Source of the DNA: an uncultured Gaiellales bacterium
GTDB lineage: Bacteria > Actinomycetota > Thermoleophilia > Gaiellales > Gaiellaceae
Assembly: GCA_964645445.1 (NCBI GenBank)
Contig: CAZXZX010000081.1
Coordinates: 1 to 54,987 of the forward strand
DNA: 54,987 bases
Direction of reading: 5' to 3'
Part shown: positions 4,640-36,596 of the stretch, in pieces
Position numbering within the stretch: position 1 is the first letter of the stretch
How the letters are laid out: every line of letters starts with the position of its first letter
Notes under the pieces: generated by a model
Told to the model about the DNA's origin: nothing
Database searches by the model: none
What the model saw: the letters and a program-made list of their open reading frames with translations, nothing else
Position numbers and translations under genes: made by a program

Positions 4640-4649
4640 TTACGCGCGT

Positions 4650-8595: not shown

Positions 8596-8618
8596 GGACG
8601 GGAAGCGTAACTGGGCCT

Positions 8619-10109: not shown

Positions 10110-10138
10110 GACCCGGCACCCTACTAGAGTCCGTCGTC

Positions 10139-11143
10139 GTGGCGACGTATGCGCTGCGGCAGCTCGTGCTCACCGTCTCGGTCGTGGTCGCAGTCTCGTT
10201 CGCGGCCTTCGTCGGCTTCGGGCTCTCGCTCGATCCGAGCTATCCGCTCGCCTTCAAGCCGCGAGAGCAGGCGGTCGTGCGGGCCGCCTACCACCTCACC
10301 GACCCGATCCTCTGGCGGTACTGGCGCTGGGCTTCAGGCCTATTGCATCACGGCTTCGGGACGACGGTGTCGACGCAGGTCGGCGGCTCGCCGCCGAAGC
10401 TGCTCGCGCCCGGAACGCCGATCGGCCCCGAGCTGTTGCGCGCGACGGCTATCAGCGCGGTGCTCATCGCGCTCGCCCTCGTCTTCGTGGCGCTCGGGAG
10501 CGCCGCCGTCGGCGTCTTCGCGGCCCAGCGTCGACGCTTTCGCGCCGACCTCGGCACGCGTGCGCTCGCGTACCTCGGCGCGGCCGTCCCGACCTTCCTG
10601 CTCGCCGACCTGCTTCGTCGCGCGATCGCGCCGAACCCCAAGGCCGTCTTCAGCCACGGCCACTTCACCCTGACGGCGAATGCCGGGTGGTTCCTCCTCG
10701 GGCCGCCGACCGGCGGGCCGGTCGACTGGTTCCGGCACCTGTTCCTGCCGGCAGCGGTGCTCGCGCTCGGCCTCGTCGGCATCTACTCGCGCTACGTCCG
10801 CTCCTCGATGGTCGCCGAGCTCGGTCGCCCGTACGCGACCGTCGCGCGCGCGAAGGGCCTCAGCGAGCGGCGTGTCCTCATCCGCCATGCGCTGCGCAAC
10901 TCGCTCGTGCCGGTCACCGCGCTGCTCTCGCTCGAGATCGGTGGGATCGTCGGCGCGTCGCTCGCCGCCGACTGGGTCTTCGGCGCCGGCGGTCTCGCCT
11001 CGGTCTTCCTCGGCGCGCTCGGGCACGCGGATCCGTTCGAGCTGACTGCGATCGTCGTCTTGAGCGCCGTCGTCGTCTGCGGGTTCACGCTGGCCGGCGA
11101 TCTACTCGTCAGCCTCCTCGACCCGCGCGTCTCTAGGTCGTAG
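10139..11143 (+). CDS. ABC transporter permease, peptide/nickel (DppB/OppB-like) family
   Basis: 334 aa. N-terminal YALRQLVLTVSVVVAVSFAAF, plus the EAA-loop region YATVARAKGLSERRVLIRHALRNSLVPVTALLSLEIGGIVGASLAADWVFGAGGL, ending in LLDPRV. Confidence 0.85.
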   Translation: MATYALRQLVLTVSVVVAVSFAAFVGFGLSLDPSYPLAFKPREQAVVRAAYHLTDPILWRYWRWASGLLHHGFGTTVSTQVGGSPPKLLAPGTPIGPELLRATAISAVLIALALVFVALGSAAVGVFAAQRRRFRADLGTRALAYLGAAVPTFLLADLLRRAIAPNPKAVFSHGHFTLTANAGWFLLGPPTGGPVDWFRHLFLPAAVLALGLVGIYSRYVRSSMVAELGRPYATVARAKGLSERRVLIRHALRNSLVPVTALLSLEIGGIVGASLAADWVFGAGGLASVFLGALGHADPFELTAIVVLSAVVVCGFTLAGDLLVSLLDPRVSRS

Positions 11144-12023
11144 TCGGGTTCAGCGCGTCGTCGAGGGCGTCGCCCGCGAACGCGACTGCAAGCAGGACGA
11201 GCACGAGCAGCACGGCGGGGATGACGTACAGCCACCACACGGATGCGATCGACGGCGCGCCGGCCGCCGAGGTCGCGTTGGAGGCGTCGGCGAGAAGGCC
11301 GCCGAGCGTCGGCCGCTCCGGCTGGTTGTAGCCGTACCCGAGATAGTCGACGGTGGCGATGATCACAATCGACTGGCCGACGATCGACGTGGCCGCGACG
11401 ATGATCGGGCCGGTGGCGTTCGGGAGGACGTGTCGTACCAGAACGCGGAGTCCCGACGCGCCCGACGCCTCGGCCGCCTCGACGTACTCCCTGACGCGCA
11501 GCGATTCAACCGTCGCGCGCGTGACGCGCGCGACGGCCGTCCACAACAGCGCCATCAGCCAGAGACCGTCCGTCAGCGGCGTCAGCGGCAGCGTCGACCA
11601 GACCGCGAGCACGATGAGCACCGCGATAGCGGGGACGGCGACGACCACACGCGTCGCGAAGCCCACGACCTCGTCGAACCAGCCACCGTAGAAGCCGGCG
11701 AGGGCGCCGACGATGACACCGATGATCGTCGAGCCGCCGGCGCAGACAAGCGCCGACAGCGAGGTCTCACGGATTCCGTAGACGAGCTGCGTGAGGAAGT
11801 CCCGGCCGAGCGGATCCGTTCCGAGGAAGTGGTGCGGCGTCAGGGGCGGCTGCGGATGCGAGATGAGCTGGACGAACTCCTGGCCGGGGTAGTACGGCGC
11901 GAGCACCCCGGCGAGCGCGCCCGCTATCGCGAACACCATGAGCAGTACGAGCGCGGCGCCCCCGAGCGGCCGACGGCGGAAACGTGATGCCGCCTGCCGC
12001 CAAGGTCCGAGGCGCGGGTTCAC
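11133..12023 (-). CDS. ABC transporter permease, peptide/nickel (DppC/OppC-like) family
   Basis: HFLGTDPLGRDFLTQLVYGIRETSLSALVCAGGSTIIGVIVGALAGFYGGWFDEVV is the DppC hallmark. The upstream 15 codons of the track ORF (to 12068) are the tRNA-His gene. The only sensible in-frame start left is GTG at 12021-12023, 3 nt downstream of the tRNA 3' end, because the next ATG would cut TM1. Confidence 0.8.
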   Translation of the reverse strand: MNPRLGPWRQAASRFRRRPLGGAALVLLMVFAIAGALAGVLAPYYPGQEFVQLISHPQPPLTPHHFLGTDPLGRDFLTQLVYGIRETSLSALVCAGGSTIIGVIVGALAGFYGGWFDEVVGFATRVVVAVPAIAVLIVLAVWSTLPLTPLTDGLWLMALLWTAVARVTRATVESLRVREYVEAAEASGASGLRVLVRHVLPNATGPIIVAATSIVGQSIVIIATVDYLGYGYNQPERPTLGGLLADASNATSAAGAPSIASVWWLYVIPAVLLVLVLLAVAFAGDALDDALNPTTT

Positions 12024-12026
12024 GAG

Positions 12027-12100
12027 GGTGGCGGACGGGATTCGAACCCGCGACCACCGGGACCACAACCCGGGGCTCTACCAACTGAGCTACCGCCACC
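12027..12100 (-). tRNA. tRNA-His (anticodon GUG) with encoded G-1
   Basis: Reverse complement is G(-1)-GTGGCGG-TA-GCTC-AGTTGGTA-GAGC-C-CCGGG-TTGTGGT-CCCGG-TGGTC-GCGGG-TTCGAAT-CCCGT-CCGCCAC-C. The extra 5' G pairs with discriminator C73, as expected for bacterial tRNA-His. Confidence 0.9.
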
Positions 12101-12184
12101 GCGAAGCGGCTACAGGGTACCGCCTCGCGCACGTGCAGGTCCTTGCCCGAACACGTTCGAAGGCAGCTGTACCCTCTGCGGGAG

Positions 12185-12257
12185 GCGCCCGTAGCTCAGT
12201 GGACAGAGCGGCGGACTTCTAATCCGCGGGTCGGAGGTTCGAATCCTCCCGGGCGCG
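12185..12257 (+). tRNA. tRNA-Arg (anticodon UCU)
   Basis: GCGCCCG-TA-GCTC-AGTGGACA-GAGC-G-GCGGA-CTTCTAA-TCCGC-GGGTC-GGAGG-TTCGAAT-CCTCC-CGGGCGC-G. Confidence 0.9.
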
Positions 12258-12366
12258 TCACGAAGCTGCTGCCGAGACGACCTGCGGTTATTGCTGCTGG
12301 GAGCGTGAAAATCAGGCCGCGCGGCGTTGCAGGTAACCCACTTCGGAGTTAGGCTCGCGACGCGGC

Positions 12367-12588
12367 ATGGCGGACCAATCCGATGAAGGAGCGGCAGCTG
12401 CGGCTCATGGGCTGAGCGCCTTGCAGGAAGCACTCGGTGCGAGGGTCGAGACGTGCTGGGATCACCTCGACGATGTCGTGTCCGAACTCGTCTCGTTGCA
12501 CGAGGTGTCTCCGGAGTTCATCGTCGCGCGCGTGAGAAAGTCCGCCAGGGCCGAGGAAGCAGGCGCAGCTCCCCTGCGATCTCGCTGA
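12367..12588 (+). CDS. Hypothetical small acidic protein (73 aa), weak call
   Basis: This is the only sizeable ORF in the roughly 350-bp, somewhat lower-GC stretch downstream of tRNA-Arg(UCU). Third-position GC bias is weaker than in neighbouring genes, and I recognise no family. Confidence 0.25.
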   Translation: MADQSDEGAAAAAHGLSALQEALGARVETCWDHLDDVVSELVSLHEVSPEFIVARVRKSARAEEAGAAPLRSR

Positions 12589-12604
12589 CGCGCGCTTCAA
12601 CCCG

Positions 12605-13129
12605 CTACTTGCGGACGCCGAAGTCGGTCGTGACGATCGTGACCGCCAGACCGTGATAGACGCCCGGCGCGCGCAGGCTGTGCACCGCCGACACGCCGAT
12701 CTCGCGCCACTGCGGATCGAGCATGTTCTTGCGATGCTCGGGGCTCCCCTCCCACATCGTCAGTGCCTTCCGCGCATCGACGCCCGGCGACGACCAGAGG
12801 AGATTCTCGCCGACCGACCAGAAGCCGAAGCGGTTCGAGGGATAGAAGCCTTGGATGCGCTTCCAGAACGCCGTTCCGTCGACCGAGTTGTGCTCGAAGT
12901 ACCCGTCGGTCTCCATCTGCACCGAGTGGCTACGAGCGGCGGCGCTGAGCGACGCCGAGAGACGAAGCGGAGCGAGATGGTGCGCTGACCGGAACGCGTT
13001 GATGCCGGTGAGGACGCCCTGCTCGAGCGATGACAGTGCCACCGTTCGCCGGCTGTCTGCAGCCGACGCGGGCAGCGCTGCCGCAGCGGCGGCGAGAGCG
13101 ACGACGACGATGACGATCCCCCGACGCAT
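12605..13129 (-). CDS. Secreted CAP/SCP (YkwD-like) domain protein
   Basis: Signal peptide [23 protein letters not shown]. The CAP-domain core is [30 protein letters not shown]...YFEHNS...GENLLW...[13 protein letters not shown]...REIGV. Confidence 0.8.
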
Positions 13130-13223
13130 TGCCGCCAGAGTCGCGTCGGCCTCGGACGGCGTCCATGGGCCGTTCGGCCCCTTCTCGCGACCCGGAGGTC
13201 CTACCGTCGGGAAGAATGGCGGC

Positions 13224-13520
13224 GTGACGCTCCGAGCAGGACCACTCGAGCGCGACGCGACCCTGCCGGACGGGCGGGTCGTCCACGTGCGCGTCGGGCT
13301 GCCCGAAGACGGCTACATCACGCCGAAGGACCTGGAGACCGTCACGTTGGAGCTGTCGGGCAACGGCGAGCATTTGGCTGCGGTGACCACGATCCTCGAG
13401 CCTGCGCAGGTGGACGAGGCGCTCGTGCTGCTCCGCCGCGTCGTCGACGGCCTGGAGAGCGGGGAGCTTGCGCCCACCGCCCACGCGATCGAGCCGCTCG
13501 CGGATACGCTGCCGACGTGA
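13224..13520 (+). CDS. Hypothetical protein (98 aa), translationally coupled to the cyclophilin gene
   Basis: GTG start at 13224 inside track ORF 12855..13520. The upstream part of that ORF is antisense to the CAP gene. The stop overlaps the next start (GTGA at 13517-13520). Third-position GC is high, and I recognise no family. Confidence 0.45.
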
Positions 13521-13972
13521 GCGCCGCGACGCTGCAGACGAATCAGGGAGCGATCGCCGTCGAGCTCTTCGACGGCGATGCGCCGAAGACGGTCGACAAC
13601 TTCGTGGCGCTCGCGCGCAAGGGCTTCTACGACGGCGTCATCTTCCACCGCGTCATCCCGGACTTCATGGTCCAGGGCGGCGACCCGACGGGCACCGGCT
13701 CCGGCGGCCCCGGCTACACGTTCGAGGACGAGTTCAACGACCATCCGGTCGCGCGCGGCGCCCTCGCGATGGCGAACGCGGGGCCGAACACGAACGGCAG
13801 CCAGTTCTTCATCGTCACCGCCGATGCGTGTCCCTGGCTGGACGGCAAGCACACAGTGTTCGGCCGCGTCACCGACGGCATGGACGTCGTCGACGCGATC
13901 TCGGCGCTCGAGACTGATGCACGCGACCGCCCGCGCGACGACGTCGTCATCCAGCGCGTCGAGCTCGCCTGA
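13517..13972 (+). CDS. Peptidyl-prolyl cis-trans isomerase, cyclophilin type
   Basis: [31 protein letters not shown]...[18 protein letters not shown]...[12 protein letters not shown] is the canonical cyclophilin core. Confidence 0.95.
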
Positions 13973-14420
13973 CCTCCTGCAGCTTCGTCCTGAGGGCGGG
14001 GCCGTACCAGAGCGCAGCCACGACGACCGCGAAGCTCACGGCGGTCGCAACTCCGATCTTCCTGCCGAACAGGACGGACGTAACCGTCAGGAGCGCGGCG
14101 ATCATCGCGATCGCGAGCGCGAGGAACCCGACGATCGCGAACCGGTTGCCGTACACGATGATCCTCTCCTTGTCGTCGGCCCGGAACCGGAGCCGGTGCA
14201 GCGAAGGGGTCGCGACCAACAGTGCCGAGGAGACGGCCGTCGCGCACAGGGACACGAAGAACGAGACCTTTTCGAAATGGGTGATCTTGCGATACCCGCT
14301 GCTGAACGGAACCGCAAGGAGGAACGCGAACAGCACCTGCACGCCGGGCAGCGCGACGCGCAACTCGTTGAGGAGCTCGATCAGCTCGCGGTTGTGCCGC
14401 TCCTTGGGAGTCTCTTCCAC
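13947..14420 (-). CDS. DUF6328-like integral membrane protein
   Basis: 157 aa. The N-terminal [29 protein letters not shown] motif plus 3-4 TM helices match my recollection of the actinobacterial DUF6328 family. Confidence 0.65.
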
Positions 14421-14443
14421 ACGCGAAGGGTAGGCTCAACGCC

Positions 14444-14779
14444 GTGCTGACGTGGGATGACCTCGTCGAGTTGGCGCGCGAACTGCCGGAGACGGAGGAG
14501 TCCACCTCCTACGGCCGGCCTGCGCTGAAGGTGCGCGGCAAGTTCGTCGCGGCGATGCGCACGAATCCCGACGCCGTCGTCCTCCGCTGCGACCTGGACG
14601 AGAAGCCGCTCCTCCTCGAGGCCCGTCCGGAGATCCTGTTCGAGACGCCGCATTACCACGGCTGGGGCTATGTGTTGCTCCGGCTCGACGCCTCGCTCGA
14701 CGACGCGCGCGAGTTCCTCACCGACTCGTGGCTGCTCGCCGCGCCCAAGCGGCTGGCGGACACCATCAGCCTCGAGTAG
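14444..14779 (+). CDS. MmcQ/YjbR family DNA-binding protein
   Basis: 111 aa. LVELARELPETEESTSYGRPALKVRGKFVAAM...HYHGWGYVLLRLD is the typical YjbR fold signature. Confidence 0.75.
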   Translation: MLTWDDLVELARELPETEESTSYGRPALKVRGKFVAAMRTNPDAVVLRCDLDEKPLLLEARPEILFETPHYHGWGYVLLRLDASLDDAREFLTDSWLLAAPKRLADTISLE

Positions 14780-15462
14780 TCCGTCCCGCCCTGCTCCTCG
14801 CGGAGGAACCGGAGCAGGTAGTGCGTGAACACTACGAAGAACACGAGCGCTTCCTCGGCGGCCATTGTCACGCCGGCGATTTGCTGGTCGGATTCGGGCG
14901 ACGGGCCCCACGTGCGGGGCGCGTGTGCGTAGAACGAATAGATCGGGCGGGGGAAGAGCGCGAGCACGAGGCCGAGCGGCGACGCGAGGACGAATGCGGC
15001 GAAGAGATACGCCGCCTTCGCGCCGGAGGAGATGCGCCCGTGCACGACCGGCCACCACAGGCAGATGCCGGCGATGAGATACATCAGATGCTCGACATGC
15101 AGCAGCGAGTGTGGATGGCGCAGCGCGACGTCGTAGATCCAGGGCAGATGCCACACGTAGTACGTAGCGAGCCACAGCGGCAGTGCGACGAAAGGTTGGA
15201 AGAGCGGGAAACGCTGCGCGCGCTCGACGACGGCGCGCGGCAGCGCGAGCACGAGCAGCGCCGGCGCCCACTCGGCGAGGGCGACGTTCTGCAGCAGGTG
15301 CGCCCACAGGAACGTGTGGATCGCAAACGGCTGCAGCTTCGTCGCGAACGCGGCGAAGATCAGCGCGAGACCGGCGGCGGCCGGAAGCGGCCGCGCGCGG
15401 AGCGCGAAGCACGCGAGCGCGAGCAGCGGGACGAGGACGACGGCCTCCGCAGAGAAATACAT
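14668..15462 (-). CDS. Cytochrome c oxidase assembly factor CtaG-like membrane protein (caa3_CtaG family)
   Basis: Multi-pass membrane protein with LLQNVALAEWAPALLVLALP and HSLLHVEHLMYLIAGICLWWPVV motifs. The last 37 or so codons are low-complexity and overlap the convergent YjbR gene by 112 nt. Confidence 0.72.
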   Translation of the reverse strand: MYFSAEAVVLVPLLALACFALRARPLPAAAGLALIFAAFATKLQPFAIHTFLWAHLLQNVALAEWAPALLVLALPRAVVERAQRFPLFQPFVALPLWLATYYVWHLPWIYDVALRHPHSLLHVEHLMYLIAGICLWWPVVHGRISSGAKAAYLFAAFVLASPLGLVLALFPRPIYSFYAHAPRTWGPSPESDQQIAGVTMAAEEALVFFVVFTHYLLRFLREEQGGTDYSRLMVSASRLGAASSHESVRNSRASSSEASSRSNT

Positions 15463-15484
15463 GGCGCTACGCTAGTCGTCCCTA

Positions 15485-15555
15485 GCGGGCGTAGCTCAAC
15501 GGTAGAGCACCAGGTTTCCACCCTGGGTACGAGGGTCCGACTCCCTTCGCCCGCT
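15485..15555 (+). tRNA. tRNA-Gly (anticodon UCC), non-canonical T-loop
   Basis: GCGGGCG-TA-GCTC-AACGGTA-GAGC-A-CCAGG-TTTCCAC-CCTGG-GTAC-GAGGG-TCCGACT-CCCTT-CGCCCGC-T. The cloverleaf is intact, but the T-loop reads TCCGACT (C at position 55) instead of TTCGANT. Confidence 0.82.
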
Positions 15556-15626
15556 CTCATATCCGTCCGGGTGGACCCTCCATCCGGGAGTACGGCGGCT
15601 TCGACCGTCCCGAGTGACTCGACTGA

Positions 15627-17261
15627 TCAGAGCGCGACGCCGGCCGGCAGCCGCTGCGCGACGACATGCTCTGCGGAATCGCGACTGGGGGCGTGCCCTG
15701 TCACCGTCGCGATGAAGTCGTCGCGCTCGAGCGCGTACAGCCCGACGTCGTCGAGGGCGCGCACGGTCGCGGTGCGGGGCACGTCGCGCAGGAGCGCGAT
15801 CTCACCGAAGAAGTCCCCGGGACCGAGCGCGCGCGCCCCGCCGTCGGCCTCCACCGCGACGCGGCCGGACGCGATGACGTAGAAGCGGTCACCGCGCTCG
15901 CCGCGCGAGAAGAGCGTCGCCCCTCCCGGGAGCGCGACCGCCACCGCGGCAGCCGCGAGCCGTTCGAGCACCGGCGCAGGCAGGACGTCGAGAAACGGAA
16001 CACCGCGCATCAGGTCGAGGGCCTGGCCGGGGACGTCCGAGGCCGCATCGATCGCGCGCAACCTCGGTGCGAGCAGCAGCACGCAGGCCGGCAGCACGAG
16101 GCCTGCGACGACGAACGATGCGCGTATCCCGACCGCGGAGACGAGCGCGGGGGCGACCGCGGCGCCGACGGCGAGCGACGCGAGGATGAGGCTCTCGAGA
16201 ACGCCGAACACGCGGCCGAGCACGTCATCAGGCGCGCTCCGCTGCAGGAGCGTCATGCCCGCGACCTCCGAGAGCGTGTTCCCCACGCCGACGACGGCGA
16301 ACAGCACGAGCGCGAAGCCGAGGCTCGTCCACGCCGCCACGAGCGCCATCGGCACGCCCCAGAGGAGCACGCCGATGCCGAGGTCGGCCGCGAGCCGTTT
16401 CCGGCCGGCGAGCCCCGCGACCGCGAGGCCGCCGACGACGCCGCCCATGCCGAACGCGGCGTTGAGCCAGCCGACGCCGCTGTTGCCGGCATTCAGCAAC
16501 TGCAGGGCGAAGACGACGAGCAGCACCTCGAAGATGCCGATCACGACCTGCTGGGCGCCCGTCAGCGCGACGACGACGCGGAGCGCGGGCTGCGAGCGGA
16601 TCGCGCGGAAACCGCCGAGGAGCGCCGGCACGAGCGGCTCGGCCTCGCCCGCCGCAGGCCGCCTGTCGGCCGGGAGCCCGAATACGCACGCCGCCGACCA
16701 GGCGACCGTCGCGGCGGTGACCGCGAACACGGTCGACGGGCCGGTCGCGGCCAGCAGCACGCCGCCCAGCGCTGGGCCTGCGAGCGTGCCCACGCTCCCG
16801 ATCGTGCTCATGGCCACATTGGCGGAGGTCAGTTCCTCCGACGTCGACGCGAGAGCGGGAAGGAGCGCAGCCTGCGCCGGCTGGAATGCAGTCGCCACCA
16901 TCGACGCCGCGACGGCGAGCGCATACACCGCGAGCGCCGGCCCGTCCGCTGCAACGAGCGCCGCCATGCCCGCAACGAGCGCGACACGCGACAGGTTCGA
17001 CAGGAGCATCACGCGCCGCCGAGAGCCGCGGTCGGCGAGCAGCGCGAGCCATGGGGCGAGCGCCGCCGCCAGCCCCCAACGCGCGAACAGCAGCAGTCCG
17101 ACGGCGCGCGCACCGCCGGCGTGGTACGCATACACGGACAAGGCGACGCCGTACGCCCAGCTTCCGAGCGTCGAACCGATTCCCGCGAGCTGCAGCCGCC
17201 GGAGCTGCGGATTCGAGAAGGACGTGGAGAAGGCGCGCAGCGACTCCCGGACCCTGCCCAT
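15627..17261 (-). CDS. MFS transporter fused to a C-terminal cyclic-nucleotide-binding (cNMP) domain
   Basis: ATG at 17259-17261 (MGRVRESLRAFSTSFSNPQLRRLQLAG...). About 12 TM helices of MFS type are followed by FLDVLPAPVLERLAAAAVAVALPGGATLFSRGERGDRFYVIASGRVAV...GPGDFFGEIALLRDVPRTATVRA, the CAP/cNMP-binding fold signature. Confidence 0.85.
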   Translation of the reverse strand: MGRVRESLRAFSTSFSNPQLRRLQLAGIGSTLGSWAYGVALSVYAYHAGGARAVGLLLFARWGLAAALAPWLALLADRGSRRRVMLLSNLSRVALVAGMAALVAADGPALAVYALAVAASMVATAFQPAQAALLPALASTSEELTSANVAMSTIGSVGTLAGPALGGVLLAATGPSTVFAVTAATVAWSAACVFGLPADRRPAAGEAEPLVPALLGGFRAIRSQPALRVVVALTGAQQVVIGIFEVLLVVFALQLLNAGNSGVGWLNAAFGMGGVVGGLAVAGLAGRKRLAADLGIGVLLWGVPMALVAAWTSLGFALVLFAVVGVGNTLSEVAGMTLLQRSAPDDVLGRVFGVLESLILASLAVGAAVAPALVSAVGIRASFVVAGLVLPACVLLLAPRLRAIDAASDVPGQALDLMRGVPFLDVLPAPVLERLAAAAVAVALPGGATLFSRGERGDRFYVIASGRVAVEADGGARALGPGDFFGEIALLRDVPRTATVRALDDVGLYALERDDFIATVTGHAPSRDSAEHVVAQRLPAGVAL

Positions 17262-17381
17262 CGGGCCAGGATCGCAGGCCGCGTTGTGTTTTTGAAGGCG
17301 GAGTGGGAAGATTGCCGCCCGCACGACCGTCTAGAGGGGGACAGCGCGCGAGCGCGCAGGCTTCCGACAAGGAGGGATCCG

Positions 17382-17531
17382 ATGTCCGAAGACGAGGGCC
17401 GGAGGGTCGAGGCGCAAGACGACGACTCCGACGAGGTGGAGCTGCATGGACGTCGCGTCGAGGCCAACCAGGAGCCCGGCGACGACGGCGACGACGACGA
17501 GGTCGAGGCGCACACGCGCCGCGTCGAATAG
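17382..17531 (+). CDS. Candidate acidic repeat microprotein (49 aa)
   Basis: ATG preceded by AAGGAGGG (17369-17376) at 5-nt spacing. The product is MSEDEGRRVEAQDDDSDEVELHGRRVEANQEPGDDGDDDEVEAHTRRVE, with an internal repeat (RRVE three times, DEVE-x-H twice). It is followed 23 nt later by a 9-bp GC hairpin. It lies at the 3' tail of shadow ORF 15666..17531. Confidence 0.5.
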   Translation: MSEDEGRRVEAQDDDSDEVELHGRRVEANQEPGDDGDDDEVEAHTRRVE

Positions 17532-17554
17532 CTCGCTCTTCACGTGCGACTGAG

Positions 17555-17577
17555 GAAGCCCGGGACGACCGGGCTTC
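17555..17577. terminator. Bidirectional intrinsic-terminator-like hairpin between convergent genes
   Basis: GAAGCCCGG-GACGA-CCGGGCTTC (9 bp perfect stem), followed on the plus strand by TTCGTGG. It sits between the stop of the microprotein ORF (17531) and the stop of the GAF gene (17587). Confidence 0.5.
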
Positions 17578-17586
17578 TTCGTGGAC

Positions 17587-18222
17587 CTACTCGGGCTGCA
17601 GAAGCAACTCGAGCGCGCGGAGCAGGTCGAGCCCCGCGGCGCGCGCCTCCTCGCCTGCGTTCTCGATGCGCGCCGCCACGCGCGCGAGCGCACCAAGCTC
17701 CCCTTCGCCCGCGAGCGTGGCCCGCGCGCGCCGTGCACGCAGCAGCAGGTCGAGGGCGACGGCGGCCTGATTCGCGAACAGTCCGAGCAGGCTCATGTCC
17801 GCGAGCGAGAACGGCTGCTCGCTCGCGCGATCGAGGACCTCGAGCACGCCGAGCGCCCTGTCCTCGGCGAGCAGCGGCACGGCCATCAGCGCCTTCGGCA
17901 CGTATCCCGTCGACTCCGCCGCTTCCTGCGAGAAGCGCGTATCCGCGGTGAGGTCGTCGACGACGAGCGGCTGCCGGGTTACGAGCACCCACCCGGCGAC
18001 GCCCGTGCTCGACGGGAAGCGCTGGCCGACAAGCGTCTGCGCGCCCTCGCCCGCGACCGCCTCGAACACGAGCTCGTCGGTCTCGCTGTCGAGCAGGAAG
18101 ATCGACGACGCCTTCGCCTTGAAGATCGCGCGCGCGACCTCCGTCGTCGACTGCAGGAGCGCGCGGTGGCCTTCGTCGGCGCCGAGGACACCGGCCGCGA
18201 CGGCCGCCTCGAGCTCACTCAT
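17587..18222 (-). CDS. GAF domain-containing protein
   Basis: 211 aa. LLQSTTEVARAIFKAKASSIFLLDSETDELVFEAVAGEG...GVAGWVLVTRQPLVVDDL...MAVPLLAEDRALGVLEVLD is a single GAF domain, followed by a short helical tail. The start overlaps the S8 peptidase stop by 8 nt (ATGAGTGA). Confidence 0.8.
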   Translation of the reverse strand: MSELEAAVAAGVLGADEGHRALLQSTTEVARAIFKAKASSIFLLDSETDELVFEAVAGEGAQTLVGQRFPSSTGVAGWVLVTRQPLVVDDLTADTRFSQEAAESTGYVPKALMAVPLLAEDRALGVLEVLDRASEQPFSLADMSLLGLFANQAAVALDLLLRARRARATLAGEGELGALARVAARIENAGEEARAAGLDLLRALELLLQPE

Positions 18223-19051
18223 GGCCGACGTTCGACGCGGTCAGGTGCAGCACGCTCTTCAGCTCGTACGGCGTCAGATCCGGGTGCTTGCCCAGGATGA
18301 GGGCGCACAGGCCGGCGATGTGCGGCGTCGCGAAGCTGTTGCCGGTCGAGCGGAGCGTGCCGCCGCCGAGCCATGCCACGTCGATCTCGAGCCCGCGCGC
18401 GAAGAACTCCACGGGCGGCGACGGGTTCGAGTAGAACGTGAACGGATCCGCCTCTTCGTGGCTGCCGACGGAGATGACGCTCGCGAACCGCCACGGGAAG
18501 CTCTCCACCGGCATGTTGTGCGCAGACGCGACGAGCATGGTGCGCTTGAAGTACGCAGAGTCGGCGAGCTCGTGCAACCGGTCGACGTGGTCGCGCTTCG
18601 TCGTCGAGAGGCTCATGTTCACGACGTCGAAGCCCTGCTCGATCGCCCACTCGAGCCCACGCAGCATCACCTTGGCGCTACCCGTGTAGCCGGCGCCGAG
18701 CACGCGGACGCTCACGAGCTCGCAGTCGGGCGCGAGTGACCGGACGATTCCCGCGCACGCGGTGCCGTGGCCGCACAGGTCGCCCTCCTCGTCGTTCTCG
18801 CGAACGATCACACAGCCGTCTTCGCGAACGATCGCGACCGACCGGTCGACTCGACCGACGAGCGGGTGGCTGTGCTCGATCCCGCTGTCGAGCACGCACA
18901 CGCGCACGCCCTTCCCCCTCGAGCCGCCCCACGCCCACTCGCGCGTCACCGGTGCCGTCCAGGCGGTCGCGCGGCGGATGGAGGCGCCCGCGTCGGCGGG
19001 CAGGCTCCAGGCCGGCAGCTCCTCGTTCGACTCGTGCGCGAGAACGGACAC
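18215..19051 (-). CDS. S8 family (subtilisin-like) serine peptidase, no signal peptide or pro-domain
   Basis: Catalytic triad motifs are VCVLDSGIEHSHPLV (Asp), GHGTACAGIV (His) and GNSFATPHIAGL (Ser). I chose the GTG start at 19049-19051 because the track ORF start (19213) would overlap the divergent sigma-factor gene. A later GTG near 18950 is also possible. Confidence 0.82.
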   Translation of the reverse strand: MSVLAHESNEELPAWSLPADAGASIRRATAWTAPVTREWAWGGSRGKGVRVCVLDSGIEHSHPLVGRVDRSVAIVREDGCVIVRENDEEGDLCGHGTACAGIVRSLAPDCELVSVRVLGAGYTGSAKVMLRGLEWAIEQGFDVVNMSLSTTKRDHVDRLHELADSAYFKRTMLVASAHNMPVESFPWRFASVISVGSHEEADPFTFYSNPSPPVEFFARGLEIDVAWLGGGTLRSTGNSFATPHIAGLCALILGKHPDLTPYELKSVLHLTASNVGHE

Positions 19052-19078
19052 TCCCGCCGATCCTAGTAGGCTCGCCGC

Positions 19079-19612
19079 GTGGCGACATCGACCGACGCCC
19101 AAGTCGTCGCCCGCTGCCGCGCCGGCGACCCCGAGGCCTGGAACGAGCTCGTCGAACGGTTCTCGCGCTACGTGTACGCCATCTGCGCGCAGGCGTTCCG
19201 CCTGAGCCCACACGACGCCGAGGACGTGTTCCAGGACGTCTTCGCGCGCGTCTACGTCAACCTCGACAGCTTGCGCAGCGACGACGCCGTCCGACCGTGG
19301 ATCGCGCAGCTCACGCGCCGCCTCTGCATCGACCGCCTGCGCGCAGGCCGGCGCGAGTCGCCTGCCCCGGACGACGCGCTCGAGTCGGGGGAGGCGGACG
19401 AGACCCTGCGCGCGATCGACGAGGCGATTGCCGTCCGCGCCGGCCTCGATGCCGTCGGCGAACCGTGCCGCGAGATTCTCGACCGCTTCTTCTGCCGGGA
19501 CGAGAGCTACCGGGCGATCGCGGACGCGCTCGATCTTCCCGCCGGCACGGTCGCGAGCCGCATTTCCCGCTGCCTGACGAAGCTTCGCGGAGAGCTGGAG
19601 GGAAGATCCTGA
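19079..19612 (+). CDS. ECF-type RNA polymerase sigma-70 family factor
   Basis: Region 2 is PEAWNELVERFSRYVYAICAQAF...DAEDVFQDVFARVY. Region 4 is CREILDRFFCRDESYRAIADALDLPAGTVASRISRCLTKLR. Confidence 0.9.
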   Translation: MATSTDAQVVARCRAGDPEAWNELVERFSRYVYAICAQAFRLSPHDAEDVFQDVFARVYVNLDSLRSDDAVRPWIAQLTRRLCIDRLRAGRRESPAPDDALESGEADETLRAIDEAIAVRAGLDAVGEPCREILDRFFCRDESYRAIADALDLPAGTVASRISRCLTKLRGELEGRS

Positions 19613-19637
19613 GCCGCGCCACCGTCATGAGAACGAG

Positions 19638-19892
19638 ATGACCGGATACGACGAAGAGCGGATCGCGCACCTGCTCCGCCTGCTTCCGCCCCCGCCACGG
19701 GGCTGGGTGGAGGCGGCGCAGGAGCTTCCGCTCGCCCGGGCCGCGATCGAGTCGATCGTCGCACGCGCGGAGGCCGACGCAGCCTTCCGGGCCCGGCTCG
19801 TCGCGGATCTCGAGGCCGCCGTCCGGGAAGCGGGCTTCGAGGCGACTCCCTCCGTTCTCGCCTCGCTCAGGCTGCGCATCGACGCCGGCTGA
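19638..19892 (+). CDS. Hypothetical protein (84 aa) downstream of the ECF sigma factor
   Basis: The ORF is in the usual anti-sigma position, but it has no Cys/His zinc motif and no TM segment. It is helical and Ala/Arg-rich (…ARAEADAAFRARLVADLEAAVREAGFE…), and I recognise no family. Confidence 0.45.
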   Translation: MTGYDEERIAHLLRLLPPPPRGWVEAAQELPLARAAIESIVARAEADAAFRARLVADLEAAVREAGFEATPSVLASLRLRIDAG

Positions 19893-19927
19893 CGCCGCAC
19901 CCGGGGGCGTCGTGGGACAATCCTCCC

Positions 19928-20458
19928 ATGGCGTCCCCGGATCGCGCCGACGCGGAGCCCATCGCGGCAACCGCGCTTGCGGCGGCGGCGGCGGCCGCCA
20001 CCAGCGCGCTCGCCGCGGTCGCCCGCGCGTCCGACCGGGGGGCGATGGCGGCGCAGGCCGAGGTGCTGCGATTGCGGGTCGCCGGCGCCGCGCGGGTCAA
20101 TGCTCTGCGCTATCCGCGCGCGCTCGAATCGCAGGAGACAACCGCCGCGCTTCCGGAGGATCGCCGCGACTGGGAGATCGGCCAGGCTTATGCGCGCGCT
20201 GCGGAGCCGCCGCTCGAGCTCGTGCGCATCGCCGCGGACACCGCCGAGCTCGCAGCCGAGCTCGCCGGTGAGGCGCTCGCCGGGCTCCGCGCCGACGCGA
20301 CCGCCGTGGCGGCACTCGCCGCGGGGGTCGCGCGGGGCGCGGTCACGCTCGTCGAGATCAACCTGACCGCTGGGCCGAACGACGAGCGCGTTGCGGAGGC
20401 TCGACGGTGCTCGGAGACGGCCGAACGCGCAGCGGCTCGCGCTGCGAGAGCTCTCTGA
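19928..20458 (+). CDS. Cyclodeaminase/cyclohydrolase family protein (FTCD C-terminal-domain-like)
   Basis: All-helical, Ala-rich 176-aa protein whose motif layout resembles FTCD_C: …AAEPPLELVRIAADTAELAAELAG…RADATAVAALAAGVARGAVTLVEINL…. The call is from remembered family features only. Confidence 0.55.
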   Translation: MASPDRADAEPIAATALAAAAAAATSALAAVARASDRGAMAAQAEVLRLRVAGAARVNALRYPRALESQETTAALPEDRRDWEIGQAYARAAEPPLELVRIAADTAELAAELAGEALAGLRADATAVAALAAGVARGAVTLVEINLTAGPNDERVAEARRCSETAERAAARAARAL

Positions 20459-21254
20459 GCGCGTCGATCTCGGCACCGAGCAGAAGCGCGAGCGCAGTGA
20501 GCCACAACCACGTCAAGGTCACGATCACAGCCGACAACGATCCCCACGTCTTGTTGTACGAGCCGAACGCGCTCGAGTAGAGCGCGAAGGCTCCGGACGC
20601 CGCGATCCAGACTGCCGCAGAGACGAGGGGGCCTGGCGACTGCAGCCGCCAGGGTCGTCTCGGGACGTCAGGGCCGAGGTAGAGAAGCGTCTCGAACGCG
20701 GCGACGAGTCCGACGATCAGGATCGGCCATTGCGCGATCCACCACATCCACCCGATGACGCCGGAAGCCGCGCCGGCATGCGAGGCGATCAGCCGCTCGA
20801 CCGCGGGACCGAACATGAGCAGCACCGCGACGAGCAGGAACGCGACGCCGATGACGGCGACCATCGCCAGCGCCACGAGGCGCCTGCGAACGAAGCCACG
20901 GCTGTCGCTCTGCTCGTAGGCGAGGTTGATCGCGGTCATGTATCCCGTCATCGCTCCGGTCGTCGACCACAGCGCGAGCACGGAGCCGATGACGGTCGCG
21001 AGCACGCCCTGCGCCGGATGCGCGTCGAGACGCTCGAGACTCGAGCCGAGCAGCGACGTCGCCTGCGCCGGCATGACGTGTTGGAAGTGCTGCATGAGCG
21101 ACGTGATCGTCCCCGGTCCCGCGACGAGCGTGAAGACGCCGACCACGACGAGCAGGACGGACGGGATCGCGAAGAACGCACCGTAGGCGAGCGCGGACGC
21201 GAGCATCGTGCCGTTGTGTGCGAGGAGCCGCTTGCCGGCGCGGACGAGAGTCAT
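20358..21254 (-). CDS. YihY/BrkB (virulence factor BrkB / RNase BN-like) family membrane protein
   Basis: ATG at 21252-21254. MLASALAYGAFFAIPSVLLVVVGVF…ALWSTTGAMTGYMTAINLAYE…YNKTWGSLSAVIVTLTWLWLTALALLLGAEI is the YihY signature. The 3' end overlaps the convergent gene by 101 nt. Confidence 0.85.
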   Translation of the reverse strand: MTLVRAGKRLLAHNGTMLASALAYGAFFAIPSVLLVVVGVFTLVAGPGTITSLMQHFQHVMPAQATSLLGSSLERLDAHPAQGVLATVIGSVLALWSTTGAMTGYMTAINLAYEQSDSRGFVRRRLVALAMVAVIGVAFLLVAVLLMFGPAVERLIASHAGAASGVIGWMWWIAQWPILIVGLVAAFETLLYLGPDVPRRPWRLQSPGPLVSAAVWIAASGAFALYSSAFGSYNKTWGSLSAVIVTLTWLWLTALALLLGAEIDALRELSQREPLRVRPSPSTVEPPQRARRSAQRSG

Positions 21255-21285
21255 CGCCTCGTCAACGACGGCTCGGCCGGAGAAG

Positions 21286-22428
21286 GTGCGGCGAGGATGG
21301 TATGACCCAGCCGTGGAGCATCGCGAACTCGTCGTCATCGGTGCCGGCTCGGCGGGCCTCGCCACGGCCGCGCTTCTGCGCCGTGAGGGCCTGGAGCCCC
21401 TCGTCCTGGAAGCGGGCGCCGAGCCGGGTGCGGCGTGGCGCGAGCGATACGACCGGCTGCGGCTGCACACGCCGCGGCTCCTGTCCGGATTGCCTGGGCT
21501 CCGCATTCCACGGCAGTACGGGCGCTGGGTGAGACGCGACGACCTGATCGAGTACTTCCACGAGTACGCCTCGACGCACGGAATCGACGTGCGCACGGGG
21601 GTGCGCGTCGATCGGATCGATCCCGGCTGGGTGCTCACGACGTCGGCGGGGCCGATCGAGGCCGGCACGGTCATCGTCGCGACCGGCTACAACGGCGCGC
21701 CGTTCATCCCCGACTGGGCGGGCCGCGACGCGTTCGGCGGCGAGCTGATCCACTCGACGCAGTACCGGAACCCGGCGCCGTATCGCGGTCGCGATGTCGT
21801 CGTCGTCGGCGCCGGCAACTCCGGCGCGGAGATCGCCACCGACGTCGCCGACGGCGGAGCTTCGCGCAGCCGCCTATCGGTCCGCACGCCGCCGCAGATC
21901 GTGCGCCGGGCGACCGCGGGCATTCCCGCGCAGTTGATCGGCATCGGGATCCGCAAGCTCCCGCCGGGTTGGGTCGACCCATTCTCGATCGCGCAGCGGA
22001 AGCTCTCGATCCCCGATCTGTCCGCACAGGGGCTTCCGCGCCCCGAGCACGGCATCCGGACGTCGTTCCTCGCGACGGGCACGACGCCCATCCTCGACGT
22101 CGGCATCGTCGACGCTGTGCGCCGCGGGCGCGTCGAGGTCGTCGCCGCGGTCGAGCGCTTCGAGGGCAACGAGGTCGTCCTCGCCGACGGGTCGCGGATC
22201 GCGCCGGATGCGATCATCGCTGCGACGGGGTTCCGAGCCGGCCTCGAGCCGCTCGTCGGGCATCTCGACGTGCTCGGCCCGCGGGGATTGCCGGCGAAGA
22301 CCGACGGCGAGCCCGTGTTGCCCGGCCTGTGGTTCGTCGGCTTCATGCCGACGCTCGGCGGGCAGCTCCGTGAGGGAAGCATCGCCGCGCGCGAGGTGGC
22401 GGCTGCCGTCGCCGCGACGCTCACCTAG
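21286..22428 (+). CDS. Flavin-containing monooxygenase-like NAD(P)/FAD-dependent oxidoreductase
   Basis: ELVVIGAGSAGLATAALL (FAD GxGxxG), WRERYDRLRLHTP, and a second dinucleotide motif VVVVGAGNSGAEIA. The start is GTG 21286 or GTG 21313. Confidence 0.8.
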   Translation: MRRGWYDPAVEHRELVVIGAGSAGLATAALLRREGLEPLVLEAGAEPGAAWRERYDRLRLHTPRLLSGLPGLRIPRQYGRWVRRDDLIEYFHEYASTHGIDVRTGVRVDRIDPGWVLTTSAGPIEAGTVIVATGYNGAPFIPDWAGRDAFGGELIHSTQYRNPAPYRGRDVVVVGAGNSGAEIATDVADGGASRSRLSVRTPPQIVRRATAGIPAQLIGIGIRKLPPGWVDPFSIAQRKLSIPDLSAQGLPRPEHGIRTSFLATGTTPILDVGIVDAVRRGRVEVVAAVERFEGNEVVLADGSRIAPDAIIAATGFRAGLEPLVGHLDVLGPRGLPAKTDGEPVLPGLWFVGFMPTLGGQLREGSIAAREVAAAVAATLT

Positions 22429-22502
22429 TCGGGGCGGGCAGACTCGAACTGCCGACTTCTCGCTCCCAAAGCGAGTGCTCTACCAGGCTGAGCTACGCCC
22501 CG
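22429..22502 (-). tRNA. tRNA-Pro (anticodon UGG)
   Basis: Reverse complement is CGGGGCG-TA-GCTC-AGCCTGGTA-GAGC-A-CTCGC-TTTGGGA-GCGAG-AAGTC-GGCAG-TTCGAGT-CTGCC-CGCCCCG-A. It directly abuts the TAG stop of the convergent monooxygenase gene. Confidence 0.9.
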
Positions 22503-33946: not shown

Positions 33947-34318
33947 ATGGGCAGGCAGTTCGTCCCCGCCGTCTCGCCGCAGGCGGCAACGGTCGGCTAC
34001 TCCCGCGCGGTACGCGACGGCCGCCACGTCCATGTCGCAGGAACGGCGCCCATCGGGATCGACTCCGCCGATCCGTACGACCAGGGGAGGCGCTGCCTCG
34101 AGATCATCACCGACGCGCTCGCCGAGCTCGGCGCCGCGCCCGAGCACGTCGTGCGGACACGGGTCTACCTCATCGACGCCGCCGACTGGGAGGAGGTCGG
34201 GCGCGCCCACAGCGAGGTCTTCGGCGCGACCAAGCCCGTGACGGCGTTCGTCGTGGTCGCGGGCCTTCTCGACCCCGCCTGGCGCGTCGAGATCGAGGCC
34301 GAGGCGCTCTTGCCGTGA
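33947..34318 (+). CDS. RidA/YjgF/TdcF family reactive-intermediate deaminase-like protein
   Basis: ATG at 33947 after AGGTGG. YSRAVRDGRHVHVAGT…DQGRRCLEIITDALAELGAAPEHVVRTRVYL…AFVVVAGLLDPAWRVEIEAEA is the typical RidA fold signature. Confidence 0.85.
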   Translation: MGRQFVPAVSPQAATVGYSRAVRDGRHVHVAGTAPIGIDSADPYDQGRRCLEIITDALAELGAAPEHVVRTRVYLIDAADWEEVGRAHSEVFGATKPVTAFVVVAGLLDPAWRVEIEAEALLP

Positions 34319-35508
34319 CGCAGCTCATCCCTCCGAGCATCACCGGGAAGGGCAGCCGCTACGCCGAGGGCGGGAGCGTCCTCGACCACGCCTTCGGCAA
34401 GAGCGACCGGTACACGCTCGGCGTCGAGGAGGAGTACATGCTCCTCGACGGCGAGTCGTTCGACCTCGTGCAGCACATCGACACGGTGCTCGCCGACGTC
34501 GCCGGGCACGAGCTCGAGACGCGGATCAATGCGGAGCTCATGCAGTCGGTGCTCGAGGTGGCGACGCCCGTCTGCCACACCGCCGCTGACGTCACGGCGC
34601 AGCTGCGGACGCTGCGCGGCTACGTCGGTGAGGTCGCGCGCGAGCGCGGGATGCGCGTCGGATCGGCGGGGACGCACCCGTTCTCGCTCTTCGAGCGGCA
34701 GCGCATCACCGCGAAGGACCGGTATCGCGCGCTCGTCGACCAGCTGCAGTACATCGCGCGGCGTGAGCTCATCTTCGGGATGCACGTCCACGTAGCCGTC
34801 GACGATCCGGAAAAGGCGATCCAGGTGGTCAACGGCCTCATCGGGCACCTCGCGGAGCTGGTCGCGCTCTCGGCGAGCTCGCCGTTCTGGCGCGGCGAGG
34901 CAACCGGCCTGCATTCGTCGCGGCACATGGTCTTCGCCGCGTTTCCGCGCTCGGGACCTCCGCCGCGCTTCCGCGACTACGCCGACTACGCCGAGGTCGT
35001 CGGCCAGCTCGAACGCACCGGTTGCATCGCGGACTACACGCACATCTGGTGGGACATCCGGCTCCACCCCCGCCTCGGGACGATCGAGATCCGCATCTGC
35101 GACGCGGTGACGCGACTCGACGACGCGGTCGCCATCACCGCGTTCTGCCAGGCGCTCGTGAAGCACTACAGCGAGCGCTTCGACAGCGGCGAGGAGATCC
35201 CGTCGTTCCACCGGATCCTCACGACGGAGAACAAGTGGCTCGCAGCACGCTACGGGCTTGCCGCGCCGGTGATGGATCTGCATACAGGTCGCCGGAACCG
35301 TATGCCGGTGGCACAGGCGATCAGGCGCACGCTCAAGCTCATCGAGCCGCACGCGCGCGAGCTCGGTTCCGACCGCGAGCTTTTCGGCGTGGAGGACATC
35401 CTCCGACGCGGGTCGAGCGCCGACGCGCAGCTGCGAGTCTTCAATGCGAACCGCGACATCGTCGAAGTCGTCCGGGAGATCGCCGCGGCGACCGAGGACA
35501 TAAGCTGA
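34315..35508 (+). CDS. Carboxylate-amine ligase, glutamate--cysteine ligase family 2 (YbdK-like)
   Basis: GTG overlaps the ridA stop (GTGA). TLGVEEEYMLLD…ELMQSVLEVATPVC…GTHPF…GMHVHVAV…SSPFW…WWDIRLHPRLGTIEIRICD is the GCS2 signature. Confidence 0.9.
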   Translation: MTQLIPPSITGKGSRYAEGGSVLDHAFGKSDRYTLGVEEEYMLLDGESFDLVQHIDTVLADVAGHELETRINAELMQSVLEVATPVCHTAADVTAQLRTLRGYVGEVARERGMRVGSAGTHPFSLFERQRITAKDRYRALVDQLQYIARRELIFGMHVHVAVDDPEKAIQVVNGLIGHLAELVALSASSPFWRGEATGLHSSRHMVFAAFPRSGPPPRFRDYADYAEVVGQLERTGCIADYTHIWWDIRLHPRLGTIEIRICDAVTRLDDAVAITAFCQALVKHYSERFDSGEEIPSFHRILTTENKWLAARYGLAAPVMDLHTGRRNRMPVAQAIRRTLKLIEPHARELGSDRELFGVEDILRRGSSADAQLRVFNANRDIVEVVREIAAATEDIS

Positions 35509-35512: not shown

Positions 35513-35971
35513 GTGATCGACGTAGGCCGACACATTCCCGAGGCGACCGTCTGGACGACGCCACAGGAGAGCGCGACGCTCGAGCAGCTCGTCTCCGACG
35601 GCCCGATCCTCCTGCTCTTCTACTTGTTCGACTGGTCCTCGACCTGAACGAACGAGATGGAGCTCCTGCGTGACAGGAGCGACGAGTTCCGCGCGGCCGG
35701 CGTGCAGCCGTACGCGATCTCGCGCGACTCGCCGTGGACGCACGTCGCGTGGATGCAGGCGCTCGATCTCGACTTTCCGCTCCTCTCGGACTGGAACGGC
35801 GAGGCGACCCACGGCTTCGACGTTGCGATCGACCACCGTGGCCTGCGTGACGTGTCGGAGCGCTCGGCGTTCCTGATCGACCGCGACGGCACGATCAGGG
35901 GCGCGTGGCGCTATGGGACATCCGAAGTCCCCGACTTCGACGTGCTGCTCGCTGCCGCCCGGGCCTTGTAG
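35513..35971 (+). CDS. AhpE-like 1-Cys peroxiredoxin with in-frame TGA (35645-35647) at the peroxidatic Cys position; candidate selenoprotein, or alternatively a nonsense-disrupted gene
   Basis: From GTG 35513, 5 nt after the ybdK stop, the frame reads VIDVGRHIPEATVWTTPQESATLEQLVSDGPILLLFYLFDWSST-TGA-TNEMELLRDRSDEFRAAGVQPYAISRDSPWTHVAWMQALDLDFPLLSDW…RSAFLIDRDGTIRGAW…. This is the thioredoxin-fold Prx pattern (FYPxxWTxxCTxE). The track only calls the 3' piece from ATG 35657. A hairpin, GCTCCTG-CGTGA-CAGGAGC, lies at 35662-35680. Confidence 0.6.
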
Positions 35972-36002: not shown

Positions 36003-36596
36003 ATGGACAATCCCATCGCCGTCGAGGCGCCGGCTGAACGCCGCTCCTCGGCTCGTATCACCGTGGGCATCGGACTCGCGATCGTGGCCGTCGGCCTCGT
36101 TTTCGCATTCGATGCAGCCGACGGTCCGCATTGGTTCGCATTCTTCAAGTGGATCCACGTCAGCGTCGCACTCTTCTGGGTCGGCGGCGGCGTCCTCCTC
36201 ACTGTCCTCGGCCTGAAGGCCGAGACCTCGAACGATCCCAACGAGATCGTCACCCTTGCTCGCTGGGCGGCCTGGGTGGGCGAGCGGCTCTTTGCGCCCG
36301 CCGGCGGCGTCGTGCTCGCGATGGGCATCGCAATGCTCATCCACGGCGGCGATCCCATCATCGCCTGGGGCAAGTTCTGGGTGATCGTCGGGCTCGTCGG
36401 CTACGCGATCACCATGACACTCGGCATCGGTGTGCTCTCGCCGCAGGCGAAGCGCATCGCCGAGCTTTCGGAGACGAAGGGCACGACCCATCCGGAGACG
36501 CTCGCGGCCATCCGCCGCATCCTTCTCATCTCCCGCTTCGACGTCGCCATCCTCCTGGTCGTCGTCGCGGACATGGTGACCAAGCCCTTCAGCTAG
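36003..36596 (+). CDS. Integral membrane protein (DUF2269-like)
   Basis: ATG at 36003. The 197-aa product has 4-5 TM helices (ITVGIGLAIVAVGLVFAF, WIHVSVALFWVGGGVLLTVLGL, …). The family assignment is tentative. Confidence 0.6.
   Translation: MDNPIAVEAPAERRSSARITVGIGLAIVAVGLVFAFDAADGPHWFAFFKWIHVSVALFWVGGGVLLTVLGLKAETSNDPNEIVTLARWAAWVGERLFAPAGGVVLAMGIAMLIHGGDPIIAWGKFWVIVGLVGYAITMTLGIGVLSPQAKRIAELSETKGTTHPETLAAIRRILLISRFDVAILLVVVADMVTKPFS

Follow-up and report, generated by a model that had tools for sequence, protein, structure and literature searches.

Does a stop codon at the catalytic position of a peroxiredoxin (Prx) gene mark a truncated gene, or a selenoprotein that annotation has missed? 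The question is raised by a Prx reading frame on contig CAZXZX010000081.1 (assembly GCA_964645445.1) of an uncultured Gaiellales bacterium. The stretch analysed, 54,987 nt in all, is referred to here as the window, and coordinates are positions in it on the + strand. The frame occupies 35513–35971 and carries an in-frame TGA at codon 45. From comparative sequence data, we consider it highly probable that the frame is a true selenoprotein gene encoding selenocysteine (Sec) in place of the peroxidatic Cys, and that its annotation as truncated is wrong. This reading follows from the pairing of Cys and UGA at one site among homologues, the long-term conservation of the UGA, selection on the protein both before and after it, and selection at the RNA level on a canonical bacterial Sec insertion sequence (SECIS). 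An initial annotation of the locus had preferred a selenoprotein to a nonsense mutation, and the conserved TGA, the ratios of nonsynonymous to synonymous substitution (dN/dS) on both sides and the frozen hairpin described below bear it out.

Reading frame, active site and fold

The Prx coding sequence (35513–35971) begins with a GTG codon, separated by 4 nt from the TGA stop (35506–35508) of the upstream GCS2 gene, and reads open up to TAG at 35969–35971. Its sole interruption is the TGA at 35645–35647, and it comprises 152 sense codons when UGA-45 is counted among them. Only 35657–35971 of this frame is covered by a mechanical list of open reading frames (ORFs) in the window. The initial annotation had given the same partial ORF call, had followed the frame back to the GTG with the TGA as its one break, and had placed codon 45 at the peroxidatic Cys; the ORF list, our reading of the frame, and alignments to PDB structures and 18 homologues lead to the same assignments. 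With the TGA read as Cys, the product matches Pfam AhpC-TSA (PF00578) at 88.5 bits (4.3e-25; curated cutoff 26 bits) over residues 4–129, a match that spans the TGA. In HMMER alignments to solved Prx structures, the TGA coincides exactly with the peroxidatic Cys of the S/T-x-x-C-T-x-E motif, making it the predicted Sec codon of an S-x-x-U-T-x-E site. The active-site residues S42-x-x-U45 and the invariant R117 are present, and the predicted product contains no Cys at all, Sec-45 being its sole redox residue. When both strands of the whole 55-kb window were scanned for a TGA flanked on both sides by coding-like sequence in the same frame, the TGA at 35645–35647 was the single instance.

As a stand-in for the window protein, a structure model was made for P0005, a syntenic Cys-orthologue that is 79% identical to it. 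The model (mean predicted local distance difference test score, pLDDT, 93.5) has the thioredoxin-type Prx fold, with template modelling (TM) scores of 0.81–0.91 to solved Prx structures. In it, residues 1–44 form three strands and one helix, and the catalytic residue stands at the N-terminus of the helix spanning residues 43–61. The solved structures closest in sequence are those of archaeal BCP/PrxQ-type proteins (63.6, 57.1 and 50.8 bits), compared with 48.4 bits for Mycobacterium tuberculosis AhpE. By fold, the model scores 0.91/0.87 against Sulfolobus Bcp4, 0.86/0.85 against AhpE and 0.86/0.84 against BcpB. Judged by these matches, the protein is a small BCP/AhpE-type Prx with one redox residue, and membership of the AhpE subfamily is not established. 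The initial label 'AhpE-like' is thus apt for the size and the 1-Cys character of the protein (no Cys besides position 45) but not for its subfamily, since BCP/PrxQ proteins match better by sequence and at least equally well by fold.

Conservation of the TGA codon and selection on the protein

A scan of species-representative genomes recovered 80 loci, of which 79 have TGA at codon 45 and one has TGC. Nearly all of these loci are labelled as Gaiellaceae, Thermoleophilia or uncultured Actinomycetes metagenome-assembled genomes (MAGs) from soil, and their TGA-forms range down to ∼64% protein identity. A second scan, of metagenomes, was seeded deliberately with Cys-forms, and TGA was nevertheless found at 77 of its 80 loci and TGC at three. 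TGA-forms therefore outnumber Cys-forms in soil assemblies by 156/160 loci to 4/160, and relatives carry TGA or TGC at exactly codon 45, a comparison that the initial annotation had proposed. Among 18 aligned full-length homologues Cys45 is invariant (18/18) and is the only conserved Cys. A protein search returned full-length relatives of 152–160 residues with 57–80% identity, along with 104-residue products of 86–100% identity that fall into dozens of distinct clusters at the 90%-identity level, indicating that the same truncated call has been made repeatedly.

Gene order matches that of the TGA-form loci in all three Cys-forms for which the neighbourhood was fetched, which indicates that the TGC- and TGA-forms are orthologues. 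Several Cys-forms are nearer to some Sec-form than to any other Cys-form, pointing to repeated switching between Sec and Cys.

Selection was estimated from 98 distinct, ungapped TGA-form genes. Codons 2–44 gave a dN/dS of 0.41 with a proportion of synonymous differences (pS) of 0.40, and codons 57–152 gave a dN/dS of 0.28 with a pS of 0.43. Because dN/dS lies well below 1 on each side of the TGA, both halves appear to be translated and under purifying selection; the region upstream of the TGA evolves as protein. Orthologues also keep their start codon at the same place, 44 codons ahead of the TGA.

A hairpin under RNA-level selection follows the TGA

The candidate bacterial SECIS core (35662–35680) lies inside codons 50–56, which encode part of helix α2. 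It consists of a 7-bp stem, GCUCCUG (35662–35668) pairing with CAGGAGC (35674–35680), and a 5-nt apical loop, CGUGA (35669–35673). The hairpin begins 14 nt past the UGA and its loop 21 nt past it. The bacterial SECIS (bSECIS) consensus specifies a loop of 3–9 nt, a stem of 4–16 bp, a UGA-to-loop spacing of 16–37 nt and a minimum free energy of −7.5 kcal/mol or lower, and asks for a G among the first two loop bases, most often as G followed by G/U (PMC13188914, Fig. 2A). The window hairpin falls within all four ranges (5-nt loop, 7-bp stem, 21-nt spacing and −12.2 kcal/mol) and has G then U at loop positions 2–3. Its sequence, coordinates and 21-nt spacing agree with those in the initial annotation, which had called for a test against the bacterial SECIS model; the hairpin fits the consensus and, as the following data indicate, is under selection at the RNA level.

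In 82 of 82 distinct coding sequences from genomes, codons 50–55 (GAG CUC CUG CGU GAC AGG) each use one codon only, CGU and AGG included. By comparison, the other invariant Leu, Arg, Ser and Gly sites of the Prx gene use 3–6 codons, with the major codon at 39–88%. Across codons 50–56, pS is 0.013 versus ∼0.4 in the flanks, and third-position entropy is 0.06 bits versus ∼1.0. The spacer between the UGA and the hairpin (35648–35661; codons 46–49 plus 2 nt) is also unusually constrained in codon usage (ACG 99%, GAG 98%), and the third-position entropy of codons 43–49 is 0.35 bits versus ∼1.0 elsewhere.

Stem pairing was counted over 110 distinct sequences, or 770 cells. Paired cells make up 99.2% of the total, as against 30–57% when the partners are slid. 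The variation consists of 17 G·U wobbles, six mismatches, all in two of the three outer pairs, and one compensatory change from U-A to C-G. This last change, in locus L157, combines CTC→TCC at codon 51 with AGC→GGC at codon 56 and replaces Leu by Ser and Ser by Gly, which suggests that RNA pairing outweighed protein sequence there. The loop bases C-G-U-G are invariant in 110/110 distinct TGA-forms. Loop position 5 (35673) varies in L103, L123 and L125 (CGUGG, CGUGC), at the cost of changing Asp to Gly or Ala.

The Cys-forms behave differently. The loop U is lost in 6/6 distinct Cys-forms, and in five of the six the stem is changed as well. Several Cys-forms encode the identical ELLRDRS peptide and yet vary at the sites that are frozen in TGA-forms (CUC→CUG, CGU→CGC/CGG, AGG→AGA/AAG/CGG). 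AGG, a rare codon, is retained in most Cys-forms. In the Cys-form P0009 (L096, L176, L177) the full 7-bp stem is kept and the sole difference is a loop U→C change; these stems look like the relic SECIS of a recent Sec-to-Cys conversion, and relic stems of this kind have been described for such conversions (PMC1794560).

Which residue is inserted at UGA-45?

Several observations weigh against a selenoprotein. The fold energy of a 56-nt segment is no better than that of shuffled sequences (z = −0.89) and is unremarkable for GC-rich sequence; no Rfam SECIS model matches the hairpin or the window, permissive thresholds giving chance matches only. The stem is so conserved that true covariation amounts to a single sequence, and the observed counts are equalled by 46 of 500 shuffles. 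Judged by sequence comparison, the significance of the hairpin thus lies in its conservation, not in thermodynamics or covariation. The Pro of the canonical Prx motif (PxxxT/SxxC; PxxxTxxC) is replaced by Leu38. As for the decoding machinery, the window and ∼1.8 Mb of flanks from related loci yielded neither tRNA-Sec nor SelA, SelB or SelD; these loci comprise syntenic flanks only and are hence uninformative on this point. ARAGORN was run on the window and every locus, Rfam on the window, and tblastn, with SelA, SelB and SelD of E. coli as queries, on the window and the 1.8 Mb; for the window, the three tools agree with the initial annotation, which had listed selA, selB, selD and tRNA-Sec as absent. 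A two-sided coding-frame scan of all loci yielded no second selenoprotein gene in the flanks, and Sec use in Gaiellales or Thermoleophilia is unreported in the literature searched.

Two of these points have side observations of their own. Codon 38 (35624–35626) encodes Leu throughout the Sec clade and in the nearest Cys-forms, and Pro is kept in more distant Cys-forms (YPFDWS). The two-sided scan produced 18 candidates, which were rejected as adjacent same-frame genes or junk; an apparent UxxC site in L053 was rejected because it lies in an Arg-rich non-coding frame.

The alternative that survives best is that the UGA is recoded to a residue other than Sec. Insertion of Cys by a SelB-dependent non-canonical tRNA is known from tRNA-ReC systems; another route would be near-cognate read-through stimulated by the hairpin without the full Sec pathway. 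The conserved UGA, the two-sided selection and the frozen hairpin demonstrate recoding, not which residue is inserted, and this alternative gains from the fact that Sec machinery was not located for the genomes carrying the Prx gene and from the silence of the literature searched on Sec use in Gaiellaceae. However, the hairpin fits the SelB-type bSECIS consensus exactly, and a catalytic Cys site accepts only Sec or Cys, so that read-through with Trp or Gly would inactivate the enzyme, in conflict with purifying selection. Inserting Cys would bring no gain over the single-step change from TGA to TGC, which occurs but stays rare (4/160 loci), and Sec-containing Prx proteins form a common, well-documented family (PMC1794560). 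We therefore regard it as improbable that the UGA is decoded outside the canonical Sec system, with Gaiellaceae lacking selA and selD or the whole pathway and the hairpin causing Cys or some other residue to be inserted in a non-standard way. If it were so, the hairpin would represent a new type of recoding signal, widespread and shared by the whole lineage, in a group that is among the commonest soil bacteria. A milder version keeps the canonical pathway, and in it the Sec trait of an aerobic soil lineage may be maintained by the Prx rather than by FdhA or SelD.

Less probable still is that the locus makes two products separately, with a peptide of 44 residues stopping at the TGA and a protein of 104 residues initiated on its own at the ATG at 35657. 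Gene callers do report such a pair, a 44-aa and then a 104-aa ORF in the shared neighbourhood, for all the related contigs that were inspected, and the 104-aa form by itself is still recognised as Pfam AhpC-TSA. But codon 49, which would provide the second start, is no start codon in 50 of 110 distinct TGA-forms, where CTG, CTC, GTC or ATC stands instead. Taken by itself, the 44-codon part belongs to no Pfam family and yet is conserved as a Prx N-terminus, and the frozen synonymous sites would be left without an explanation. The initial annotation had asked whether orthologues begin at the internal ATG: this ATG is unconserved, and the 44 codons upstream of the TGA are conserved as protein. 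The 104-aa ORF called at 35657–35971 lacks strands β1–β3 and the catalytic residue and, judging from the structure model, could not work as an enzyme, and the call is an artefact of annotation rather than a biological product.

The reading of the locus as a pseudogene, or of the TGA as a sequencing or assembly error in an ordinary Cys-Prx, is already refuted, as far as comparative sequence data go, and we give it almost no weight. A single window cannot tell a lesion from recoding, but the same TGA recurs in ∼166 independent contigs, which come from various species, assemblies and sequencing technologies, with no frameshifts or further stops and with dN/dS well below 1 on both sides, and the 64–100% divergence among TGA-forms excludes one contaminating sequence. 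One metagenome copy does look like a decaying gene: in L154 (Ga0066675_10280665; Prx at 319–750), a TGA-form, the hairpin is destroyed (CTC CTC CTG GAC in place of CTC CTG CGT GAC) and there is a second in-frame stop; its contig is 1.2 kb long, and a sequencing error is also possible. Genome-wide reassignment of TGA was rejected, since 23 of the 43 crude gene calls in the window, that of the upstream GCS2 gene among them, have TGA as their stop.

The remaining doubt therefore concerns the residue inserted at UGA-45 and whether the standard machinery inserts it. On the selenoprotein reading, a ribosome reaching UGA-45 would insert Sec in place of terminating, and the full 152-residue enzyme would then be made. 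Its selenolate would attack peroxides and be converted to a selenenic acid, which, in a protein without a resolving Cys, an external thiol would have to recycle; a thioredoxin and a glutamate-cysteine-ligase-family enzyme are conserved neighbours. We infer the insertion of Sec itself, the presence of SelA, SelB, SelC and SelD in the genomes that carry this Prx, and the identity of the reductant.

Sec-decoding loci recovered in the searches

The search for SelA was extended beyond the Prx loci. A search from an actinobacterial SelA seed, taken from an Arthrobacter plasmid, returned Micrococcaceae only. A search of 50%-identity representatives gave 150 SelA proteins; the candidates followed up from it led to Pseudonocardiales-like and Gemmatimonadota sequences and to an unplaced actinobacterial contig, and none of these candidates was tied to Gaiellaceae. 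Ranking SelA proteins by amino-acid composition gave no discrimination. Two SelA candidates for Gaiellaceae were not accepted as such: P0244 is Pseudonocardiales-like, and P0257 lies on an unplaced actinobacterial contig from a bulk metagenome and has no similarity to the Gaiellaceae loci.

Three of the Sec loci encountered are described here for their organisation. In L181 (ENA ERZ25039476 contig_4799, 1.28 Mb; 355–13264), from a Pseudonocardiales-like soil MAG with 71% GC, selD, selA and selB are followed directly by tRNA-Sec. These sel genes adjoin the glycine-reductase genes grdA (CFVU) and grdB, both split at TGA codons by gene callers. L174 (2181–15245) is part of pYA7-1a, a conjugative plasmid of Arthrobacter sp. 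YA7-1 (NZ_CP110115.1), and carries fdh, selD, selA and selB beside a transposase of the Tn3 family; Sec decoding as a whole appears to be carried by this plasmid and to be mobile with it. L182–L184 (WNGR01001039.1 and two other records; 10001–13281) hold a selA-selB pair on an unplaced high-GC actinobacterial soil contig, with WhiB, MDMPI-type and PIG-L-family proteins nearby and no selD or tRNA-Sec within 10 kb.

Gene neighbourhood

Two genes upstream of the Prx gene, identified by Pfam matches, likely form an operon with it: RidA (33947–34318, +) and a GCS2-family glutamate-cysteine ligase-like enzyme (34315–35508, +), which overlap by 4 nt. Downstream lies a gene for a DUF2269 integral membrane protein (36003–36596, +; Pfam and synteny), and a thioredoxin (Trx) gene is found 3 kb upstream (Pfam). 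The order Trx ... RidA-GCS2-Prx-DUF2269 is conserved in relatives. The three Cys-form loci have Trx, cyclic-nucleotide (cNMP)-binding, beta-lactamase-fold, RidA, GCS2 and Prx genes, with DUF2269 after the Prx gene in one of the three. The initial annotation had proposed a thiol/redox cluster; the gene order on which this depends is conserved, which makes an operon devoted to thiol redox chemistry plausible, and the genes may be functionally linked. Elsewhere in the window, six tRNA genes (Leu-tag, Arg-tcg, His-gtg, Arg-tct, Gly-tcc and Pro-tgg) are spread over 18 kb (4556–22502), none of them tRNA-Sec.

Mis-annotation and significance

The public records of this Prx gene that were examined take three forms: the split into 44-aa and 104-aa ORFs; a 104-aa 'peroxiredoxin' or 'redoxin domain-containing protein'; and a full-length protein with Trp in the active site. 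Trp stands at the catalytic position in eight full-length database entries (P0003, P0012, P0024, P0033, P0036, P0065, P0068 and P0120). The DNA behind P0003 (L180:55–513, JGI Ga0604936_0935829) has the TGA and the SECIS hairpin, indicating that genetic code 4 was applied to this short contig in gene calling. With the DNA of P0003 as the basis, all eight entries very probably represent the same Prx gene read with that code. Against the NCBIfam PrxU model (NF040737) the window protein reaches 39.8 bits, the cutoff being 270, and because no NCBIfam model reaches its own cutoff, mis-annotation of the gene is systematic. It affects the family across the recovered Gaiellaceae and Thermoleophilia MAGs, with no NCBIfam model to rescue it.

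The Gaiellaceae lineage is generally regarded as aerobic. The prevalence of TGA-forms in a presumed aerobic lineage sits awkwardly with the statement, in a review, that aerobic bacteria rarely retain selenoproteins (PMC13188914). Prx proteins with a TxxU site have been recognised since 2001–2006 as an established, common and well-documented bacterial selenoprotein family (PMC1794560; PMC13188914). The selenoprotein family, the textbook mechanism and the routine splitting of such genes by pipelines are therefore known, and what is new is the member from soil Gaiellaceae. Its value is practical and ecological, and lies in how prevalent it is among soil Gaiellaceae, in how consistently it is mis-annotated and in the series of Sec and Cys orthologues that occurs in nature. 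Repeated natural switches from Sec to Cys among orthologues, some with a relic SECIS, provide a clean system for asking what Sec gives a Prx.

Comparison with known systems

Like the SelB-dependent elements of E. coli fdhF and fdnG, the predicted SECIS is a stem-loop within the ORF that follows the UGA directly on its 3′ side, and its small apical loop carries G-U at the distance that the consensus prescribes (PMC13188914). It differs in that its primary sequence is unrelated and no bulged U is evident in the window hairpin.

Among Cys-dependent enzymes, M. tuberculosis AhpE (PDB 1XXU, 4X0X) is likewise actinobacterial, has ∼153 residues with one redox residue near position 45, and shares 28% identity and TM scores of 0.86/0.85; it uses Cys, however, and is a weaker sequence match than archaeal BCP. 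The BCP/PrxQ-type proteins (Aeropyrum pernix BCP, 2CX3; Sulfolobus Bcp4, 3HJP; M. tuberculosis BcpB, 5EPF) are the best sequence and structure matches and have a similar length and a monomer-type architecture. They too use Cys, at 27–31% identity, and many BCPs have a resolving Cys five residues past the peroxidatic one, whereas the window Prx has none.

The prototype Sec-Prx is PrxU of Eubacterium acidaminophilum (Sohling et al. 2001, as cited in PMC13188914). The window Prx is not a PrxU orthologue: it is a 152-residue BCP/AhpE-type protein without a resolving Cys and with Leu for the motif Pro, and it comes from soil Gaiellaceae, whereas the host of PrxU is a strict anaerobe. What it has in common with the PrxU or 'Prx, TxxU' family is the AhpC/TSA fold, a predicted Sec for the peroxidatic Cys in a T/S-x-x-U site, an in-frame SECIS after the UGA and the existence of Cys-orthologues.

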